The notes under the pieces are model-generated. The model saw only the letters and a program-made list of their open reading frames with translations. It ran no database searches and was not told the origin of the DNA. Position numbers and translations under genes: made by a program. Positions 8,554 through 16,098 of a DNA stretch of 40,270 nucleotides are shown here, in pieces; within the stretch, counting starts at the first letter, position 1, and every line of letters begins with the position of its first letter. The DNA is from a virus (Duplodnaviria > Heunggongvirae > Uroviricota > Caudoviricetes). The DNA is taken from the IMG/VR virus record IMGVR_UViG_2740892440_000005, positions 1 through 40,270 of that record; one strand, given 5' to 3'.

Positions 8554-8853
8554 TCAAATAAGTGGTTTGCTGCCTAATTTCATTTTCTGGCGACCAACAC
8601 AAGTCACACCCATTTCACTGCGTGGCTTGCGGTAGTAAATACGGTTCTGTTTACGCTCGACTTCTTCTGCCTTCTTGCAGCGAAGGCTTCCGAGTGATGC
8701 TGCTTTATCTGCTCTGACGCAACCAGAGAGCTTTAGCGCAATCTTTCGCGCCAGTCGCTGTTCTTGCATTGCCTGTTCACGTTGAGCCTGTCTGCGTGCT
8801 CTGCGGCGATTTCTGGCGTTATCGTCAGCCAGATATGTAATGACTACTGTCAT
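8554..8853 (-). CDS. N: N-type transcription antiterminator (99 aa)
   Basis: N-terminal arginine-rich motif NARNRRRARRQAQREQA; first gene downstream of pL/nutL; GGAGG RBS. Confidence 0.7.
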   Translation of the reverse strand: MTVVITYLADDNARNRRRARRQAQREQAMQEQRLARKIALKLSGCVRADKAASLGSLRCKKAEEVERKQNRIYYRKPRSEMGVTCVGRQKMKLGSKPLI

Positions 8854-8960: not shown

Positions 8961-9001
8961 TCCCGCATTTCGGCGGGACAATCCCATCAATGTTAAAGAG
9001 C
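8961..9001 (-). promoter_or_regulatory. nutL (boxB hairpin 8961-8978, boxA-like 8993-9001)
   Basis: On the minus strand boxB reads TCCCGC-CGAAAT-GCGGGA, identical to the nutR boxB; boxA-like GCTCTTTA lies upstream. Confidence 0.6.
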
Positions 9002-9047
9002 CTGCCAATCTGTTCCGTTTGGCTACCAGCGTCCTGCTGATGGCTAA

Positions 9048-9089
9048 AGAATACTGTAGGTATTTTATTGTGTAAATACCCAAGGTATT
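9048..9089 (-). promoter_or_regulatory. pL promoter with OL operators
   Basis: Minus-strand -35 TTTACA and -10 TATTCT with 17-bp spacer; operators AATAC-N5-GTATT at 9050-9064 and 9075-9089; weaker third site at 9120-9134. Confidence 0.55.
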
Positions 9090-9221
9090 TATTTTTGGTG
9101 AAATAATGATAAGCAAATGAATACAAAGGATATTTATTTTTTTCGGTGTCTGCTTGTTCAGTGCTTTTTATGCGGGATATGTGAAGTGGATCCCGATAGC
9201 TATTGCTGCCGGGATTATAGG

Positions 9222-9590
9222 TTAGTCAGCGAAGGTTAAGACGAGAATTACCTTAATGATGTCTGCTACAACAGACACGGCCATAGATAAACCAAAGACG
9301 ATCCAAGCCACAGTGATGTCTTCACTACCATCGTATAGAGTTCCGTAATCACTGGTGTAAGGCGTAAATGTAGCGCCTTGATACAATAGGTATAAGCTTG
9401 ATCCATAGAGGATAAATGCAGATATCCCTTGTATTGCTATGACAACTAGAATCATGAAACGAGCTGATCTATGCGCCCAAGCCTGGCTTATTTTTTCTGA
9501 TAGAGATTTCGCAATAAAAGCATGCGCTAAGCCGTAAATTGTTGAGATTGACAACATCCCCAAAAAGCTTGCTATAGCGGTTCCAACCAT
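9222..9590 (-). CDS. Small polytopic membrane protein (122 aa) immediately downstream of cI
   Basis: Hydrophobic translation with several predicted TM segments; 18-nt gap from cI stop, same strand, so likely co-transcribed in the lysogen. Confidence 0.6.
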   Translation of the reverse strand: MVGTAIASFLGMLSISTIYGLAHAFIAKSLSEKISQAWAHRSARFMILVVIAIQGISAFILYGSSLYLLYQGATFTPYTSDYGTLYDGSEDITVAWIVFGLSMAVSVVADIIKVILVLTFAD

Positions 9591-9608
9591 AAGCGCCCCC
9601 TTGCGTGA

Positions 9609-10325
9609 TCAAACCAGTCTGAGTTTTGTCTCAATTGCAACGCCTATAATCTTGCAGTTTCCATTGATTGGCACGAGAGGCCATGCAGGATTAAGTCCCT
9701 TGAGGTATTTATTTCCGCCGTCGATTATCAGCTTCTTGAATGTTGCTTCGTTAGAGTCAGAAAGTTTTGCTATGACCAAGCTGCCGTTGATCGCCTCCCT
9801 TCCGGTATCGAAAAGAACGAATGTTCCCTCTGGAATGCTTAACCCAACCGGTGCCGTCATTGAATCACCTTCCACTTTAAGCCAAAACGCATTACCTTGA
9901 ATATGCGCGTCAGACTCAAGCCAAACATCTATGTCTTTAATGGTGTATGGTTCGCATGCTTCACACCACGAGCCAGCCTGGATACTGCTTAACACCGGAT
10001 ACCTCTTTCCTGCTCTGTATTCCCCTGCATACCTTACGTTGGCATCGCTCTTAAGGCTTTCTGCCTGTTCTGCAACCTTGGCAGCAATTGACTGGCTAAA
10101 ATCAGCAATTGAGACTTGCAACAATCGTGCAAAACCAGATGCAACCTCAACGTTTAGCGCGTTTCTGCCATTAAGATAATGCCCTACCGCTCCTTGGGTG
10201 ATACCCAGTTCATCAGCGATTGAGTATTGGGTTATTCCCAATTCTTTCTTTTTTGACTCATACAAAGCCTTAAGCCGCTTAGCGTCTTCGAGCTGTTCTG
10301 TCGTCAGTGATTTTTTATTTTCCAT
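9609..10325 (-). CDS. cI: CI-type prophage repressor (238 aa), HTH plus S24 autopeptidase domain
   Basis: N-terminus LTTEQLEDAKRLKALYESKKKELGITQ and C-terminal EGDSMTAP...TFKKLI are closely lambda-cI-like. Confidence 0.9.
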   Translation of the reverse strand: MENKKSLTTEQLEDAKRLKALYESKKKELGITQYSIADELGITQGAVGHYLNGRNALNVEVASGFARLLQVSIADFSQSIAAKVAEQAESLKSDANVRYAGEYRAGKRYPVLSSIQAGSWCEACEPYTIKDIDVWLESDAHIQGNAFWLKVEGDSMTAPVGLSIPEGTFVLFDTGREAINGSLVIAKLSDSNEATFKKLIIDGGNKYLKGLNPAWPLVPINGNCKIIGVAIETKLRLV

Positions 10326-10336
10326 AGCTTAATTCT

Positions 10337-10402
10337 AATAGCTAAGGTACTTAAACTAAAAATACCCTGAGTATTGATTGCTTTGAATACCTGTAGTATT
10401 CT
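10337..10402. promoter_or_regulatory. OR operators with overlapping pR (and presumably pRM)
   Basis: Three sites AATAC-N5-GTATT at 10337-10351 (imperfect), 10361-10375, 10386-10400, spaced 24-25 bp; pR -35 TTGATT (10374-10379) and -10 TATTCT (10397-10402). Confidence 0.6.
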
Positions 10403-10431
10403 TTGTTCATGGTTAATAACGGAGAGTGCAT

Positions 10432-10626
10432 ATGATTCGAATGACACTTGCCGATTACGCCAAAATCCATGGACAGGCTAAAGCAGCCAGTGACTTTGGT
10501 GTAATCCAGTGCGCTATCAGCAAGGCCATTCTGGCAGGCCGTAACATCATGGTTACGGTAAAGCCTGATGGCAGTGTGATTGGAGAGGAAGTTCGTCCTT
10601 TCCCAAGCAACAAGAAAAACAAATAG
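10432..10626 (+). CDS. cro: Cro repressor (64 aa)
   Basis: [15 protein letters not shown]...PFPSNKK closely parallels lambda Cro; GGAGAG RBS 5 nt upstream of ATG. Confidence 0.9.
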
Positions 10627-10632
10627 TAACAC

Positions 10633-10677
10633 CGCTCTTTAACAGTCATGGTCCTCATTCCCGCCGAAATGCGGGAA
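10633..10677 (+). promoter_or_regulatory. nutR (boxA CGCTCTTTA 10633-10641, boxB hairpin 10658-10677)
   Basis: boxA matches the consensus; boxB stem TTCCCGC/GCGGGAA with loop CGAAAT. Confidence 0.65.
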
Positions 10678-10734
10678 TACAACGCGCATAAGTTGATGCG
10701 CATAACTTCTTATTTGTTAAGGAAATACTTACAT

Positions 10735-11013
10735 ATGCAACTTACAAGTACTCGCAAGAAAGCGAATGCAATTACAAGCAACATCCTAAATCGAATTGCT
10801 GTACGTGGTCAGCGAAAGGTTGCCGACGCGTTAGGGATTAATGAATCGCAAATTTCGCGATGGAAAGACAGCTTCATCCCAAAAATGGGAATGCTTCTGG
10901 CTGTTCTTGAATGGGGTGTTGAAGACGAGGAGTTGGCGGAACTGGCTAAGAAAGTAGCCAGAATGCTGACAAAAGAAAAAGCCCCGAAAAACGGCGAATT
11001 CTTCGAGGCCTGA
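10735..11013 (+). CDS. cII: CII-type transcriptional activator (92 aa)
   Basis: ...ESQISRWKDSFIPKMGMLLAVLEWGV... closely matches lambda CII core; start chosen at ATG with AAGGA RBS. Confidence 0.8.
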   Translation: MQLTSTRKKANAITSNILNRIAVRGQRKVADALGINESQISRWKDSFIPKMGMLLAVLEWGVEDEELAELAKKVARMLTKEKAPKNGEFFEA

Positions 11014-11047
11014 TGTAGAAAGACTGGATCAATCCACAGGAGTAATT

Positions 11048-11209
11048 ATGACAAAACGTCGTAAGAAATACCAGGAAAAAGAAGAGATTCGACACCCTGA
11101 TTCACCTGAGGGATTAGTGGTAGCCGCAGCAAATAACAGGGCGTTCGCAGAGCGCCTTGTTGGTGTTTACAGACTAGCCAAAGCAGGAGTGAAACATGGG
11201 CGTCGTTAA
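11048..11209 (+). CDS. Small basic hypothetical protein (53 aa) between cII and the initiator gene
   Basis: Hand-translated (MTKRRKKYQEKEEIRHPDSPEG...); AGGAG RBS 5 nt upstream; overlaps the next gene start. Confidence 0.35.
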   Translation: MTKRRKKYQEKEEIRHPDSPEGLVVAAANNRAFAERLVGVYRLAKAGVKHGRR

Positions 11210-12026
11210 GTTAGCTGATTACAGGCCTCAACTGGAGGTCGTGGAGCATCGCGTGGCAGAACTCGAAGATGGCTACACTCGGACTGCAAACACACTGTTA
11301 GAAGCCGCCATGCTTTCTGGACTTACTCTACATCAGTTACTGATTGTTATGGCTGTGTGGCGCAAGACATACGGTTACAACAAAAAAATAGATTGGATCG
11401 GAAACGAACAGTTCGCTGAACTCACTGGCATGGCACCAACCAAATGCTCTACCGCCAAAAACGAGCTTATCAGAATGGGAGTTCTCATTCAGGTGGGGCG
11501 TCAAGTTGGTATGAATACAAACATTTCCGAGTGGAAAACGAAAGTTAACGGATTCGGTAAAACATTTACCAATTCGGTAAAACAAACCTTCACCAAATCG
11601 GTAAAAAGCAATTTACCGAATCAGTCAAACACAAAAGACAATATACAAAAGACAATAAATACAAATACCCCCTTACCCCCTAACGGGGGCGGCGATGGGC
11701 AGGTTAAACCTGAACGTCGCAAGGCAGAACGAATCGACTATGAATCCTTCCTGAACGCCTACAACACCGAAGTCGGTGACAGACTGCCACACGCTGTTGC
11801 GGTCAACGAGAAACGCAAACGCCGCCTGAAGAAAATCATCCCGCAACTGAAAACGCCAAACGTGGACGGTTTCAGAGCGTATGTCAGGGCGTTTGTGCAT
11901 CAGGCCAAGCCGTTTTACTTCGGAGACAACGACACGGGCTGGACGGCAGATTTTGATTACCTGCTGAGGGAAGACTCGTTAACGGGAGTTCGGGAAGGGA
12001 AGTTTGCAGACAGGGGGATTGCATGA
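11196..12026 (+). CDS. Replication initiator, lambda O / P22 gp18-type (276 aa)
   Basis: N-terminal domain [14 protein letters not shown]...[10 protein letters not shown] matches the O N-terminal domain; iterons are embedded in the gene. Confidence 0.8.
11553..11621. repeat. Origin iterons inside the initiator gene
   Basis: TTCGGTAAAACA at 11553 and 11573, ATCGGTAAAAAG at 11597, inverted TTTACCGAAT at 11612; followed by an A/T-rich tract at about 11625-11665. Confidence 0.65.
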
Positions 12027-13399
12027 GACAGGATATCGAAGCGAGCGTTATCGGTGGCCTGCTGATTGGTGGATTAACACCAACCGCCAGCGACGTTCTG
12101 GCAACGCTGGAGCCGGAAGCGTTTTCAATTCCGCTCTACCGGAAAGCCTTCGAGGTTATCCGCAAGCAGGCGAGAAACAGAAACCTAATCGACGCACTGA
12201 TGGTTGCCGAGGCGTGCGGAGATGAGCATTTCACGTCAATCCTGATGACCAGCAAAAACTGCCCGAGCGCCGCAAACCTGAAGGGATATGCCGGAATGGT
12301 CGCGGATAACTATCACCGCCGTCTGGTGCTGGAAATCATGGATGAAATGCGTGAACCAATTCAGAGCGGAACCATCGACGCATCGAGTCAGGCGATGGAT
12401 GAACTTGTAAAGCGTCTTTCAGCCATCAGAAAGCCCCGTGACGAGGTTAAACCTGTACGGTTAGGGGAAATCATTACTGACTACACTGACACGCTTGACA
12501 GGCGTCTGAGGAACGGAGAAGAGTCAGATACCCTGAAGACCGGAATCGAAGAACTTGATGCCATCACCGGAGGGATGAACGCGGAAGACCTGGTGATAAT
12601 CGCTGCTCGTCCTGGTATGGGGAAAACCGAGCTGGCGCTGAAGATTGCCGAAGGCGTTGCAAGCCGCGTTATTCCTGGTTCTGACGTCCGGCGCGGGGTA
12701 TTGATTTTCTCAATGGAAATGAGCGCATTGCAGATTGCAGAGCGAAGCATTGCCAACGCCGGGAGGATGTCGGTTAGCGTACTGCGAAATCCTGCATCGA
12801 TGGATGACGAAGGCTGGGCGCGTGTTGCTAACGGCATGAGTCAGCTTGCAGATTTGGATGTATGGGTAGTCGATGCCTCGCGGTTATCGGTCGAAGAAAT
12901 ACGCTCAATCGCAGAACGGCATAAACAGGAAAATCCAAACCTGTCTCTAATCATGGCGGATTATCTTGGCCTGATTGAGAAGCCGAAAGCAGACCGCAAC
13001 GACCTCGCAATTGCTCACATCTCCGGAAGCCTGAAGGCGATGGCGAAAGACCTGAAAACGCCTGTTATCTCCCTGAGTCAGCTTTCGCGCGATGTTGAGA
13101 AGCGACCAAACAAACGCCCGACAAACGCAGATTTGCGTGATTCAGGAAGCATTGAACAGGACGCAGACTCAATCATCATGCTCTATCGGGAAGCGGTATA
13201 TGACGAGAACAGTAGCGCCGCGCCATTTGCTGAAATCATCGTGACGAAAAACCGTTTTGGCTCACTTGGTACGGTTTACCAGCGGTTCTGCAACGGACAC
13301 TTTGTTGCATGTGACCAGGATGAAGCCAGACAGATTTGCACAGCATCAAATGCACCTGCTGCGCGTGGCAGACGATATGCACAAGGGGCTGACGTATGA
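12023..13399 (+). CDS. DnaB-family replicative helicase (458 aa)
   Basis: Walker [10 protein letters not shown], DnaB-like N- and C-terminal domains; ATGA overlap with the initiator gene. Confidence 0.9.
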
Positions 13400-13424
13400 C
13401 CATCTACATCACTGAGCTAATAAC

Positions 13425-13456
13425 AGGCCTGCTGGTAATCGCAGGCCTTTTTATTT
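13425..13456 (+). terminator. Intrinsic terminator-like hairpin after the helicase gene
   Basis: Stem AGGCCTGC/GCAGGCCT, 8-nt loop, then TTTTTATTT. The same sequence could instead encode a 27-aa hydrophobic peptide (13396-13479). Confidence 0.45.
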
Positions 13457-13471
13457 GGGGGAGGGTAAATC

Positions 13472-13678
13472 GTGGTTGAGTTGATTTTTTCTGCATTGAG
13501 GATTCTCGGTGCTATGTGGATGGTGGCGACGTTCATTGTGGTTGCCAGCAGTTTTGTCCGGTTGGTAGGCGAAGGTAAAGACCTGGTTGGTGTGCTTTTC
13601 GGTAGCATTTTTCTGTGGGCGATTATCGGTGTTATGCCTGTTGTCGTAGCAAAAGTGGCGTGGCGTTTTGTGAGTTAA
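13472..13678 (+). CDS. Small hydrophobic membrane protein (68 aa), GTG start
   Basis: GGAGGG RBS 7 nt upstream of GTG; translation has two hydrophobic segments. Confidence 0.45.
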   Translation: MVELIFSALRILGAMWMVATFIVVASSFVRLVGEGKDLVGVLFGSIFLWAIIGVMPVVVAKVAWRFVS

Positions 13679-13690
13679 TCGGAGGTTAAT

Positions 13691-14107
13691 TTGAGCAAGT
13701 GCCAAAAGTGCAATAACACAGGAATGTGTGATAGCGGAGGTTCTACTCCTTGGGGAGAGCCGATTTTTATTGAATGTGACTGCCTTATGAAAGATGACGA
13801 AAGCAGATGCCAGTTTGAAGAGAGTTGGTTACGACGTGGGGGCGAATCTTCAGACCTTATCCGTTACCCTGAAAATCACCATGAAATTGGCAGTGGTGAT
13901 ATTGGTGGTCAATACGTGATGGACGATGTTCAAGGCCACTGGCAAACGTGGCAGGCATCGAGAGCAGCTATTGAAATTGAGCTGCAAAAGCCAAAGAAAG
14001 GCCCACTTCCCGGTGATTATCACATTGGCTATGACTCAGGTGCAGAATCACAATACGAAAGCGATGTAGAGGCCATCCGCGCTGCTGGAGTTAAAGTGAA
14101 GGAGTGA
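13691..14107 (+). CDS. Hypothetical protein with N-terminal Cys cluster (138 aa), TTG start
   Basis: GGAGG RBS 5 nt upstream of TTG; CQKCNN...ECDC zinc-ribbon-like motif. Confidence 0.45.
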   Translation: MSKCQKCNNTGMCDSGGSTPWGEPIFIECDCLMKDDESRCQFEESWLRRGGESSDLIRYPENHHEIGSGDIGGQYVMDDVQGHWQTWQASRAAIEIELQKPKKGPLPGDYHIGYDSGAESQYESDVEAIRAAGVKVKE

Positions 14108-14109
14108 GT

Positions 14110-14250
14110 ATGAGACCGAAGATACTAGGCTGGCACATCTCGATATCATGGCAGCCGAAAACCAAGTGGGGGTATTTCTCGTTTTGGCATGATGGACCCA
14201 TGAGAGCATTCTGGATAGGCCACATCGTAATAGAGTGGTGGTGGCGATGA
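14110..14250 (+). CDS. Small Trp-rich hypothetical peptide (46 aa)
   Basis: Hand-translated; AAGGAG RBS 5 nt upstream; stop overlaps ninB start. Confidence 0.3.
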   Translation: MRPKILGWHISISWQPKTKWGYFSFWHDGPMRAFWIGHIVIEWWWR

Positions 14251-14657
14251 AGCAGACAATCTTCCTTCGAAGTAAGCAACAACAGCAAGCCGCAATCAAC
14301 GCCATCCTCGCAACTCCTCTCGATAAAGACAAGCCAGTCACCATCCGCATTACTGACTACAAGCGCAACCTTGACCAGAACGCAAAATTTCACGCGATGC
14401 TGGCGGATATCGCACGTCAGGTTCAATGGTGCGGCAAATGGTTAAAACCGAAACAATGGAAGGTTTTGTTGATCAGCGGTCATGCAGTGGCAACAAAACA
14501 GGAAGCTGATGTTTTGCCCGGCCTTGAAGGTGAATACGTCAACATTCGCGAAAGCAGCGCGCAGATGAGTGTGAAGCGTATGGCAAGTCTGATTGAGTAC
14601 ACGACAGCATGGGCTATTGGTCAGGGTGTCAGATTTACCGACAGGAGGTACGAATGA
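14247..14657 (+). CDS. ninB: NinB / Orf-family recombination mediator (136 aa)
   Basis: ...[27 protein letters not shown]... matches lambda NinB core. Confidence 0.8.
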
Positions 14658-14830
14658 GACGACAGCGACGAAGTTTCACCGATATCATCTGCGAAAACTG
14701 CAAATACCTTCCAACGAAACGCTCAAGAAATAAACGCAAGCCAATCCCAAAAGAATCTGACGTAAAAACCTTCAACTACACGGCTCACCTGTGGGATATC
14801 CGGTGGCTAAGACATCGTGCGAGGAAATGA
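14654..14830 (+). CDS. ninE: NinE-like small protein (58 aa)
   Basis: [29 protein letters not shown]...; AGGAGG RBS; ATGA overlap with ninB; nin-region position. Confidence 0.5.
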
Positions 14831-14832
14831 CA

Positions 14833-15207
14833 ATGGATTATTCACAGTTAAGTGATTTTGAAATTAACGTGGCGGTATTCGAAGCCATTCATAACGGATC
14901 ACCGGATTACAAAGAAGGTGAGAATGGCGATATGGTGTTTGTCTCATTTGAGGGAGACATTGTAAACGGAGACGCAGTTGAAGTAGAAGTTGAGCGCGGT
15001 TCCTTTAACCCATGCGCAAACCCAGCAGACGCATGGCCGATTATCATGGAAAACATGATCAGCGTATGTGCATACAAGCGAGCAAACCCTGGCATGAAAG
15101 CAGTGTCATGGTGGGAGGCTGATAGCTTTGGTGAGCATATTACTCTTGATGACAACCCTCTCCGCGCAGCCATGATTGTCTTTCTCATGATGCAGAGAAT
15201 CCAATAA
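14833..15207 (+). CDS. NinX-like (DUF2591-type) protein (124 aa)
   Basis: MDYSQLSDFEINVAVFEA... as recalled for NinX-family proteins; GAGGAAA RBS. Confidence 0.5.
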   Translation: MDYSQLSDFEINVAVFEAIHNGSPDYKEGENGDMVFVSFEGDIVNGDAVEVEVERGSFNPCANPADAWPIIMENMISVCAYKRANPGMKAVSWWEADSFGEHITLDDNPLRAAMIVFLMMQRIQ

Positions 15208-15383
15208 TGCTTAGCCCATCCCAATCCCTTCAATACCAGAAAGAAAGCGTCGAGCGAGCTTTAACGTGCGCTAACTGCGGTCAGAAGCTGCATGTGCTGG
15301 AAGTTCACGTGTGCTCCGATTGCTGCGCAGAACTGATGAGCGATCCGAATAGCTCAATGTACGAGGAAGAAGACGATGAATGA
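15207..15383 (+). CDS. ninF: NinF-like small Cys-containing protein (58 aa)
   Basis: Hand-translated MLSPSQSLQYQKESVERALTCANCGQKLHVLEVHVCSDCC..., resembling lambda NinF; TAATG overlap with upstream gene. Confidence 0.55.
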   Translation: MLSPSQSLQYQKESVERALTCANCGQKLHVLEVHVCSDCCAELMSDPNSSMYEEEDDE

Positions 15384-16098
15384 GTTAATAAATGGCAATG
15401 CCATCAAAATGACAAGCATTGAAATCGCTGAGTTGGTTGGTAAGCGTCATGACAATGTGAAACGTACCATCGAAACGCTGGCTAAAAATGGTGTTATCCG
15501 GCTTCCTCAAATTGAGGTTTCCGAAAGAATCAATAACTTAGGGTTCAATGTTCAGTACGAGCATTACGTCTTCGAAGGCGAACAAGGTAAGCGAGATAGT
15601 ATTGTTGTTGTTGCCCAGTTGTCGCCAGAGTTCACCGCTCGCCTTGTTGACCGTTGGCGAGAGCTTGAAGAAGCTGCGGTTAATATCCCAAAAACGCTAC
15701 CAGAAGCGTTGCGCCTTGCTGCTGACCTTGCTGAGCAGAAAATGCAACTGGAAAACCAGCTCGCAATTGCCGCACCTAAAGTTGAGTTTGCCGATCGCGT
15801 TGGCGAGGCCAGCGGAATTTTGATTGGAAACTTTGCAAAGGTTGTTGGAATTGGTCCAAACAAACTGTTTGCGTGGATGCGCGATCACAAAATCCTTATT
15901 GCTTCAGGTTCCCGGCGCAATGTACCAATGCAGGAATATATGGATCGCGGCTATTTCACCGTAAAAGAAACAGCGGTCAACACAAATCACGGAATACAGA
16001 TATCGTTCACCACAAAAATCACCGGGCGTGGCCAACAGTGGCTGACCAGAAAGCTGCTCGATAACGGAATGCTGAAAGTAACAGGGGAGGCTGCTTAA
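15376..16098 (+). CDS. Rha-family regulatory protein with C-terminal KilAC/antirepressor domain (240 aa)
   Basis: N-terminal Rha-like segment (TSIEIAELVGKRHDNVKRTIE) and C-terminal KilAC-like segment (GNFAKVVGIGPNKLFAWMRDHKIL). Confidence 0.75.
   Translation: MNELINGNAIKMTSIEIAELVGKRHDNVKRTIETLAKNGVIRLPQIEVSERINNLGFNVQYEHYVFEGEQGKRDSIVVVAQLSPEFTARLVDRWRELEEAAVNIPKTLPEALRLAADLAEQKMQLENQLAIAAPKVEFADRVGEASGILIGNFAKVVGIGPNKLFAWMRDHKILIASGSRRNVPMQEYMDRGYFTVKETAVNTNHGIQISFTTKITGRGQQWLTRKLLDNGMLKVTGEAA

Follow-up and report, generated by a model that had tools for sequence, protein, structure and literature searches.

A ninA/tR2 block behaving as a conserved adapter where the replication genes of a P22-like phage meet its nin region

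We analyzed the boundary between the replicative helicase gene and the genes downstream of it in a stretch of phage DNA of 40,270 nucleotides (nt) (IMG/VR virus record IMGVR_UViG_2740892440_000005, positions 1 to 40,270; the whole stretch is referred to here as the window). In this P22-like lambdoid phage, the locus lies in the early-right (pR) operon, at the joint where the replication genes give way to the nin region. It contains the short gene ninA, the intrinsic terminator tR2 within ninA, and, downstream, a gene for a 68-amino-acid protein. Our data indicate that a 68-bp block within the locus (13396-13463) behaves as a conserved adapter. The ninA/tR2 block appears to be a universal adapter at a mosaic joint, where it supplies a stop codon to the preceding replication gene and a ribosome-binding site and an overlap to the next nin gene. 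Both ninA and tR2 are already known: few intrinsic terminators have been studied as thoroughly as tR2, and lambda maps have shown ninA since 1982. The features of the locus are as follows.

12023-13399, + strand: DnaB-type replicative helicase gene (P22 gene 12 / HK97 P type), with Pfam matches to DnaB_C (9.6e-78) and DnaB (4.6e-13).
13396-13479, + strand: ninA, 27 codons, running through tR2 (phrog_5907 profile, curated ninA annotations, identity to lambda, and codon-periodic variation).
13425-13456, + strand: tR2 intrinsic terminator, a stem-loop and uridine tract (U-tract) identical to lambda tR2.
13457-13465, + strand: Shine-Dalgarno stretch GGGGGAGGG, the right end of the conserved ninA/tR2 block.
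13472-13678, + strand: gene for the 68-amino-acid protein, a predicted two-helix membrane hairpin (phrog_1165, full-length profile match).

The ninA/tR2 block at mosaic joints

The first-pass annotation, which was made from the letters of the window, had described a 27-amino-acid open reading frame (ORF) overlapping the helicase stop, a hairpin within this ORF, and a 68-amino-acid ORF with a good ribosome-binding site after the hairpin. We found all three in place. The helicase stop (TGA, 13397-13399) lies inside the start of the 27-amino-acid ORF as ATGA (13396-13399), the hairpin lies at 13425-13448, and the 68-amino-acid ORF, for which two helices are predicted, has a GTG start (13472) located 7 nt after GGAGG (13460-13464).

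Our analysis covered sequence identity, conservation patterns, coupling geometry, and coding constraint. A search of phage records with 13390-13482 as the query found the block in 421 records, among them lambda, P22, HK620, 933W and other Shiga toxin (Stx) phages, phage 21, ST64T, and others. Most of these matches begin exactly at the ninA ATG and end at GGGGGAG. Two samples of related loci were collected, one from a scan seeded on the 22-nt hairpin and the other from a scan seeded on synonymous variants of the first eight ninA codons; among loci seeded on the ninA 5' end, 120 of 145 contain the identical 22-nt hairpin.

The genes on either side of the block are far more diverse than the block. 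At the left joint, we counted at least eight unrelated upstream genes whose ends fall on the ninA start, six of them through ATGA, one through TGATG, and one through TAA-ATG. These upstream partners include ren, two helicase types, a gene with a frame of 633 amino acids, and an 89-amino-acid phrog_2239 gene. At the right joint, the start of the downstream gene precedes the ninA end by 4, 8, or 14 nt, and at least nine unrelated genes occupy this position (ninB, three subtypes of the 68-amino-acid gene, genes of 108, 92, 71, and 65 amino acids, and HK97 gp60), and TTTGGGGGAG is kept before at least nine different downstream genes. The NinA C-terminal tail varies with the downstream gene, with GKS, VNRG, GK, VIGGFKK, GKCG, and GEK as the tails found. 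In the window, the ninA stop (TGA, 13477-13479) lies 5 nt inside the 68-amino-acid gene and produces an 8-nt overlap, GTGGTTGA, at 13472-13479. That the nin genes of lambdoid phages are chained through ATGA has been described before (PMC8022706, citing Kroger & Hobom 1982 and Cheng et al. 1995).

A degenerate-pattern scan of genome contigs returned mostly exact lambda sequence in non-enteric assemblies or chance matches, and real matches came only from Escherichia, E. albertii, and Shimwellia. The exact lambda order and sequence of ren-ninA-tR2-ninB was present in Pseudomonas, Oceanobacillus, Bradyrhizobium, Psychrobacter, Shewanella, Nocardioides, and other assemblies (contigs L130, L141, L143, L144, L147, L148, L150-L152, L154, L155, and L164-L166). 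The contigs with lambda sequence are mostly of low coverage, one of them is 48,442 bp long, and the non-enteric matches look like contamination with lambda DNA. A record named 'Campylobacter phage CJLB-4' (MW057783, 48,361 bp) also matches lambda, with lambda-like coordinates.

The tR2 terminator

The hairpin, AGGCCTGC-TGGTAATC-GCAGGCCT at 13425-13448, is followed by TTTTATTT. It has an 8-bp stem with 6 G-C pairs, an 8-nt loop, and the U-tract TTTTTATTT. Folded alone, the hairpin reaches -15.7 kcal/mol (z = -4.1), and 0 of 200 shuffles fold equally well. A stringent terminator scan, which required a stem of 7 or more bp without mismatches, 5 or more G-C pairs in it, and 7 or more T among the 9 nt that follow, found two sites in the 40-kb window, tR2 and a site at 27411, and none in 30 dinucleotide shuffles, both strands included. 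The other terminator-like site (27411-27437, + strand) reads AGGGAGC-TTCG-GCTCCCT followed by TTTTTTATC.

The hairpin and U-tract are identical to those of lambda tR2 (J02459), and their map position is also that of lambda tR2, where the replication genes end and the nin region of the pR operon begins. A tR2 terminator is annotated in AM072972 (Lahn2), AF335538 (HK620), Y10775 (933W), and OL657228; the 933W record uses the wording 'homologous to ninA gene' and 'rho-independent terminator'. Since its sequence is identical to lambda tR2 and tR2 is annotated in public records, the hairpin is, at the level of sequence, tR2 itself and not merely a tR2-like structure. The first-pass annotation had offered the latter as a fallback ("simply the tR2-like terminator"), and it was right to do so.

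Lambda tR2 has been measured in vivo with its natural lambda upstream sequence (Li et al. 2016, PMC4824070). Its efficiency was approximately 0.8 with an upstream stop 18 bp away and approximately 0.9 when the stop was at least 30 bp away (PMC4824070). Here, 25 nt separate the helicase stop from the tR2 stem. By extrapolation from reporters with the identical lambda sequence, tR2 would be approximately 80-90% efficient in this phage.

Variant versions of the block

The block is also found in altered forms. HK97 gp56 keeps the first 11 ninA codons, followed by an unrelated terminator hairpin and T6 at the same codon positions, and its peptide is hydrophobic. The HK97-type hairpin, GGGCTATT-TACAC-AGTAGCCC and then T6, folds with z = -2.5, and this version of the block keeps both the terminator and the frame. 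An HK97-type relative (L182, 993-1090) contains a compensatory change in the stem, where C-G replaces T-A; with one T fewer in its U-tract, ninA there runs on in frame as a fusion with the downstream gene.

In phage 1717 (NC_011357; L128 1893-2560) and some prophages, with L012 (6334-7079), L084, and L112 as further loci, a gene for a 203-amino-acid HNH endonuclease lies between approximately codon 10 of ninA and the tR2 hairpin. These loci contain a chimeric ninA' of 34 amino acids that has no hairpin (fold z = +0.15) and is still hydrophobic, and tR2 is intact directly after the endonuclease stop. The ninA/tR2 block, the most conserved of lambdoid phages, seems to serve as a homing site.

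ninA as a coding frame

The 27-amino-acid peptide matches phrog_5907 (1.3e-18, residues 1-26 against profile positions 1-26 of 27). A ninA annotation is present at this ORF in P22 (AB426868), HK620 (AF335538), Lahn2 (AM072972), and 933W (Y10775), and the phage 21 record also names ninA and tR2. The profile match and these annotations identify the ORF as ninA, a named gene described in 1982 that the first-pass annotation had not recognised. Codon-level constraint on ninA is measurable, though RefSeq lambda (NC_001416 40571-40648) has no ninA annotation and Escherichia coli genomes annotated by the Prokaryotic Genome Annotation Pipeline (PGAP) usually omit it.

This constraint is not uniform along the gene. 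Within codons 2-10, 7 of 12 distinct variants in the hairpin-seeded sample are synonymous (P = 0.02 given the same numbers of transitions and transversions), while the five non-synonymous variants are all conservative (I/V, I/M, T/S, T/A). Three of the four point changes in the stem are C to T with a G.U pair kept, two of these three being synonymous, and the fourth, C to A in two loci, breaks the pair. A change from T to A in the loop leads to L13Q, which is non-conservative, in 8 loci, and W21 is variable, being replaced by L, C, or a stop. The 5' third of ninA looks constrained as codons, the middle as RNA structure, and the tail only to end on the next start. Conservation with synonymous-site variation, which the first-pass annotation had set beforehand as a test of the 27- and 68-amino-acid ORFs, was found for both.

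That ninA is translated rests on Li et al. 2016 and its citation of Liu et al. 2013, and the synonymous excess in codons 2-10 adds indirect evidence. In lambda reporters, Li et al. 2016 (PMC4824070) found a NinA initiation site that 'is not weak', and the same authors cite ribosome profiling for the ninA start (Liu et al. 2013).

We considered whether ninA might not be a gene, its frame being accidental to a conserved terminator and a linker for homologous recombination between modules. The block is near-invariant in nucleotides and lies exactly at mosaic joints (ATG on the left, GGGGGAG on the right), ninA is left out by RefSeq lambda and PGAP, and the HNH variants keep the hairpin without the ninA start, all of which would fit an accidental frame. 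Such a frame would not be expected to show the synonymous excess and codon periodicity of codons 2-10, to keep stop/start overlaps with at least eight upstream and at least nine downstream partners, or to be kept in the HK97-type replacement hairpin. In addition, the ninA start is active in reporters, and ribosome profiling is cited by Li et al. (PMC4824070). It is very unlikely that ninA is not a gene.

Given that the ORF begins 30 nt before the terminator and continues through it, ninA could instead be a leader peptide, with its translation, or stalling at Ile/Thr-rich or rare CUA-AUA codons, controlling read-through of tR2 by attenuation in the manner of pyrBI. Codons 2-10 include three Ile and three Thr, rare CTA ATA codons lie just before the stem, and a ribosome near polymerase represses tR2 when the stop codon is within a few bp (PMC4824070). 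However, the RNA from the AUG to the U-tract folds into the terminator only, with no antiterminator pairing and with the first 23 nt unpaired, and a nascent RNA without a competing structure argues against attenuation. Silencing the ninA start raised lambda tR2 termination by only approximately 10% (PMC4824070), and CTA ATA is not conserved, often being CTT GTA, CTG GTA, or TTG GTA. We regard control of tR2 by a ninA leader as highly improbable.

A further explanation is that the NinA peptide has a function of its own as a membrane micro-protein with a single span, acting as a toxin or by regulating a host membrane protein, and that the terminator merely shares its sequence. In its favor, three unrelated 3' halves keep a hydrophobic stretch after MTIYITELI(T/A)G, namely LLVIAGLFIW in lambda, AIYTVALFYW in HK97, and LSLLMVLTVYIIKYIL in the HNH-insertion type, the last of which is hydrophobic though it lacks the hairpin. 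Codons 2-10 are constrained at the codon level, and reading the hairpin in either of the remaining frames yields a stop or a polar peptide. On the other hand, the C-terminus differs with each downstream gene, L13Q falls in the middle of the helix in 8 loci, W21 changes to L, C, or a stop, frameshifted and fused forms of ninA exist, and U-tracts and AT-rich DNA encode hydrophobic residues anyway. Pfam, NCBIfam, and PADLOC connect NinA with no toxin or defence family, no phenotype has been reported for it, and the nin5 deletion, which removes ninA, is viable (PMC3349717). These data make a micro-protein that merely shares its sequence with the terminator rather unlikely. Because the hydrophobic half has been rebuilt three times from unrelated DNA, we leave a small chance that the NinA peptide itself matters. 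It is similarly unlikely, and slightly more so, that NinA was selected as a single-span micro-protein and acts with the 68-amino-acid protein as a pair of early membrane effectors, so far uncharacterised, in lambdoid phages. Linked to this is the idea that an obligatory non-stop ninA on tR2-ended RNA would tie early phage expression to host transfer-messenger RNA (tmRNA).

The 68-amino-acid protein

The 68-amino-acid protein matches phrog_1165 over its full length (2.9e-35, 1-68 of 68). A word-indexed search found 192 clusters at 90% identity; the best 120 of these come from Escherichia (E. coli, E. albertii, E. marmotae) and Salmonella, and every name is 'hypothetical protein'. Of 5426 complete E. 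coli genomes, at least 534 carry ninA together with the 68-amino-acid gene at a coverage of at least 80%, the latter as a prophage gene, and the ninA/tR2 block is found in roughly 2,000 E. coli genomes. Three subtypes (A, B, and C) diverge by up to approximately 50% over residues 1-47, but none departs from a length of 68 codons, which all 26 unique copies of the gene share. The ratio of non-synonymous to synonymous substitution rates (dN/dS) is 0.16-0.5 against the window copy, and the other two frames are closed with 3-5 stops. The start of the gene is fixed, since the C subtype has ATG at the position of the window GTG.

More distant relatives of 63-66 amino acids with 30-38% identity were found by an exhaustive HMMER search; W16, W49, G53, K61, and W64 are invariant and residue 10 is basic in all. 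A distant 63-amino-acid relative (L196), from another lambdoid prophage, has the O and loader genes before it and NinX and NinF after it. A terminator was sought before it and none was found, and therefore the association of tR2 with the 68-amino-acid gene is not obligatory.

The AlphaFold (AF2) model places helices at residues 2-33 and 38-67 with a mean predicted local distance difference test score (pLDDT) of 92. Together, the conservation and the model indicate that the 68-amino-acid ORF is a real, conserved gene for a predicted two-helix membrane hairpin. An N-in/C-in topology in the inner membrane is predicted because the basic residues at 10 and 61 are conserved. Our guess is that the product is a non-essential accessory membrane protein that acts on the host envelope, a guess drawn from its architecture and the dispensability of nin genes. 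The curated HK620 record annotates ninA and tR2 but omits the 68-amino-acid gene (AF335538 12378-12584; L194 1879-2085). A conserved, unnamed gene for a predicted membrane protein is thus present in approximately one-tenth of complete E. coli genomes and missed by curated records such as that of HK620.

The first-pass annotation had further suggested that the two small proteins might each be a membrane-active toxin or regulator. Pfam, NCBIfam, and PADLOC returned no match for the 27- or the 68-amino-acid protein at E-values up to 1, and no sigma-70-like site for an antisense RNA was found on either strand of 12800-14400, which is a weak test. Rfam gave no match in 9000-16000 and a chance-level one elsewhere. 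With these results, and with the varying tail of the 27-amino-acid peptide and its tolerance of L13Q, the suggestion finds no support. A type I toxin (Hok, Ldr, TisB, Ibs) was also tried as a candidate and rejected, as there was no toxin or defence homology and the weak test for an antisense-RNA promoter found none.

The 68-amino-acid protein resembles class II holins of 68-71 amino acids in its size and two-helix layout and contains a GxxxG-like pair, G40-G44. It could be a lysis-type or toxic membrane protein, such as a type I toxin, a pinholin, or a class II holin. However, its gene precedes ninB and Q in the nin region of the early-right operon rather than standing beside an endolysin gene, and lysis genes come after Q. 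The C-terminus, KVAWRFVS (8 residues), has no charged tail, no holin or toxin family was matched, no antisense promoter was found, and the gene is carried as a prophage gene by approximately 10% of complete E. coli genomes (534/5426). We consider a lysis-type or toxic function quite improbable. Overall, nothing supports the toxin, holin, and attenuator readings.

A model for the ninA/tR2 adapter

We propose a model in which the block acts in four ways: as a stop/start junction, as a terminator, as a source of stop-less ninA transcripts, and as a link to the next gene. The first four bases of the block, ATGA, provide both the helicase stop and the ninA start. Thirty bases further on, the tR2 hairpin and U-tract would stop polymerase that has not been modified by an N-type antiterminator. 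Transcripts ending at tR2 would hold ninA without a stop codon, and ribosomes on them would need rescue by tmRNA. In lambda, tR2-terminated RNAs carry stop-less ninA and call for trans-translation, and expression of an upstream reporter is halved (PMC4824070). On antiterminated read-through transcripts, ribosomes would translate through the hairpin in the ninA frame as far as UGA 13477-13479. As this UGA is inside the next start region (GGAGG, 7 nt, GUG 13472), translation would be passed on, and the hand-over from ninA to the 68-amino-acid gene would form part of the 'chain of interlinked genes' of the nin region. The 68-amino-acid gene would be expressed only from transcripts that read through tR2, and because it lies past tR2, its product would be made only after N acts. 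A candidate for N is an N-like gene with an arginine-rich motif at 8554-8853 (- strand). From the published lambda experiments we take how efficiently tR2 terminates, that the ninA start is active, and what a non-stop ninA does to expression, whereas we infer the N-dependence in this phage, the hand-over of ribosomes, the membrane insertion, and the role of the 68-amino-acid protein.

Several points weigh against this model. The figures for termination and translation come from lambda reporter plasmids and not from this phage, and the N-like gene scores 20.2 bits against Pfam N_peptide, below the curated threshold of 27.9. The sample of related loci is biased by its seeding, and it counts variants rather than independent events. 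A few loci break the ninA frame or its coupling, through an extra T in the U-tract, a 1-nt deletion before ninB, the in-frame fusion in L182, or a stop at W21; coupling is therefore not indispensable. The HNH variants keep tR2 though a 203-amino-acid gene parts it from the ninA start. Regarding the 68-amino-acid protein, a Foldseek search of the model against PDB and BFVD returned only generic helical hairpins (ATP synthase c subunits and designed transmembrane proteins), all with E >1. With these points weighed, we consider it highly probable that ninA and tR2 form an adapter with a terminator, a non-stop ninA, and a hand-over to the 68-amino-acid gene.

Other features of the window

The closest whole-window matches are HK620, CUS-3, and Kapi1-type Lederbergvirus (P22-like) phages. 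The gene order in the window is cro, cII, O-like, helicase, ninA/tR2 block, ninB, and ninE, with cI also present; the gene that precedes the DnaB-type helicase gene is a Phage_rep_O gene by Pfam. These matches identify the window as a P22-like (HK620/CUS-3-like) E. coli phage. One further nin-region gene follows the 68-amino-acid gene and is given for context only.

13691-14107, + strand: 138-amino-acid nin-region gene with a TTG start, phrog_343 (Sf6 gene 48-like).

Phage phiv205-1 has GTG at the TTG start of this 138-amino-acid gene (13691-14107, + strand), and the product has a Cys-rich N-terminus (CxxC...CxC). A very hydrophobic ORF of 122 amino acids (9222-9590, - strand) lies between the N-like gene (8554-8853) and cI (9609-10325); no Pfam family matched it above threshold. 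This position is a frequent site of exclusion genes in lambdoid phages. The orthologue of the window helicase in phage TL-2011a (JQ011316; L002 207-2600) is 797 amino acids long, compared to 458 amino acids in the window. It contains an insert of approximately 339 amino acids that directly follows the Walker-A 'GMGK' and ends '...VTHN', with 'TELALK' next. The insert has the look of an intein within a DnaB-type helicase of a phage.

Comparison with known systems

Comparison with named systems sharpens small points only and matters little for discovery, the locus being an ordinary one. Lambda (J02459 40571-40638) contains the same block from ATG to GGGGGAG, with 67 of 68 positions identical (98.5%), and the only difference is the synonymous ATC/ATT. 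In lambda tR2/ninA (Kroger & Hobom 1982; lambda 40571-40648) the same ATGA overlap with the upstream gene is found at the same position between the replication and nin genes. The partners on both sides differ: upstream, lambda has ren while the window has a DnaB-type helicase of the P22 gene 12 type, and downstream, lambda has ninB while the window has the 68-amino-acid membrane protein gene. As a result of the different downstream partner, the peptide ends in RVNRG (27 amino acids) in the window and in RGKS (26 amino acids) in lambda, and the ninA stop forms an 8-nt overlap with a GTG start in the former and ATGA in the latter.

HK620 (AF335538 12302-12385), which has a P22-like genome, contains the same 27-amino-acid ninA with the same 8-nt overlap with the 68-amino-acid gene, there of the B subtype. 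It differs in having another helicase type and a TGATG joint. P22 ninA (AB426868 34610-34690) shares the ATGA joint between helicase and ninA, but in P22 ninB follows directly. HK97 gp56 (32 amino acids) has the same first 11 codons, follows a DnaB-type helicase, contains an intrinsic terminator inside the ORF, and overlaps the next gene, whereas its hairpin sequence and the second half and tail of its peptide are unrelated to ninA of the window. Lastly, compared with PHROG 1165, the window copy of the 68-amino-acid gene is an ordinary member of the A subtype, 96% identical to the commonest E. coli prophage form and with no real difference from it.

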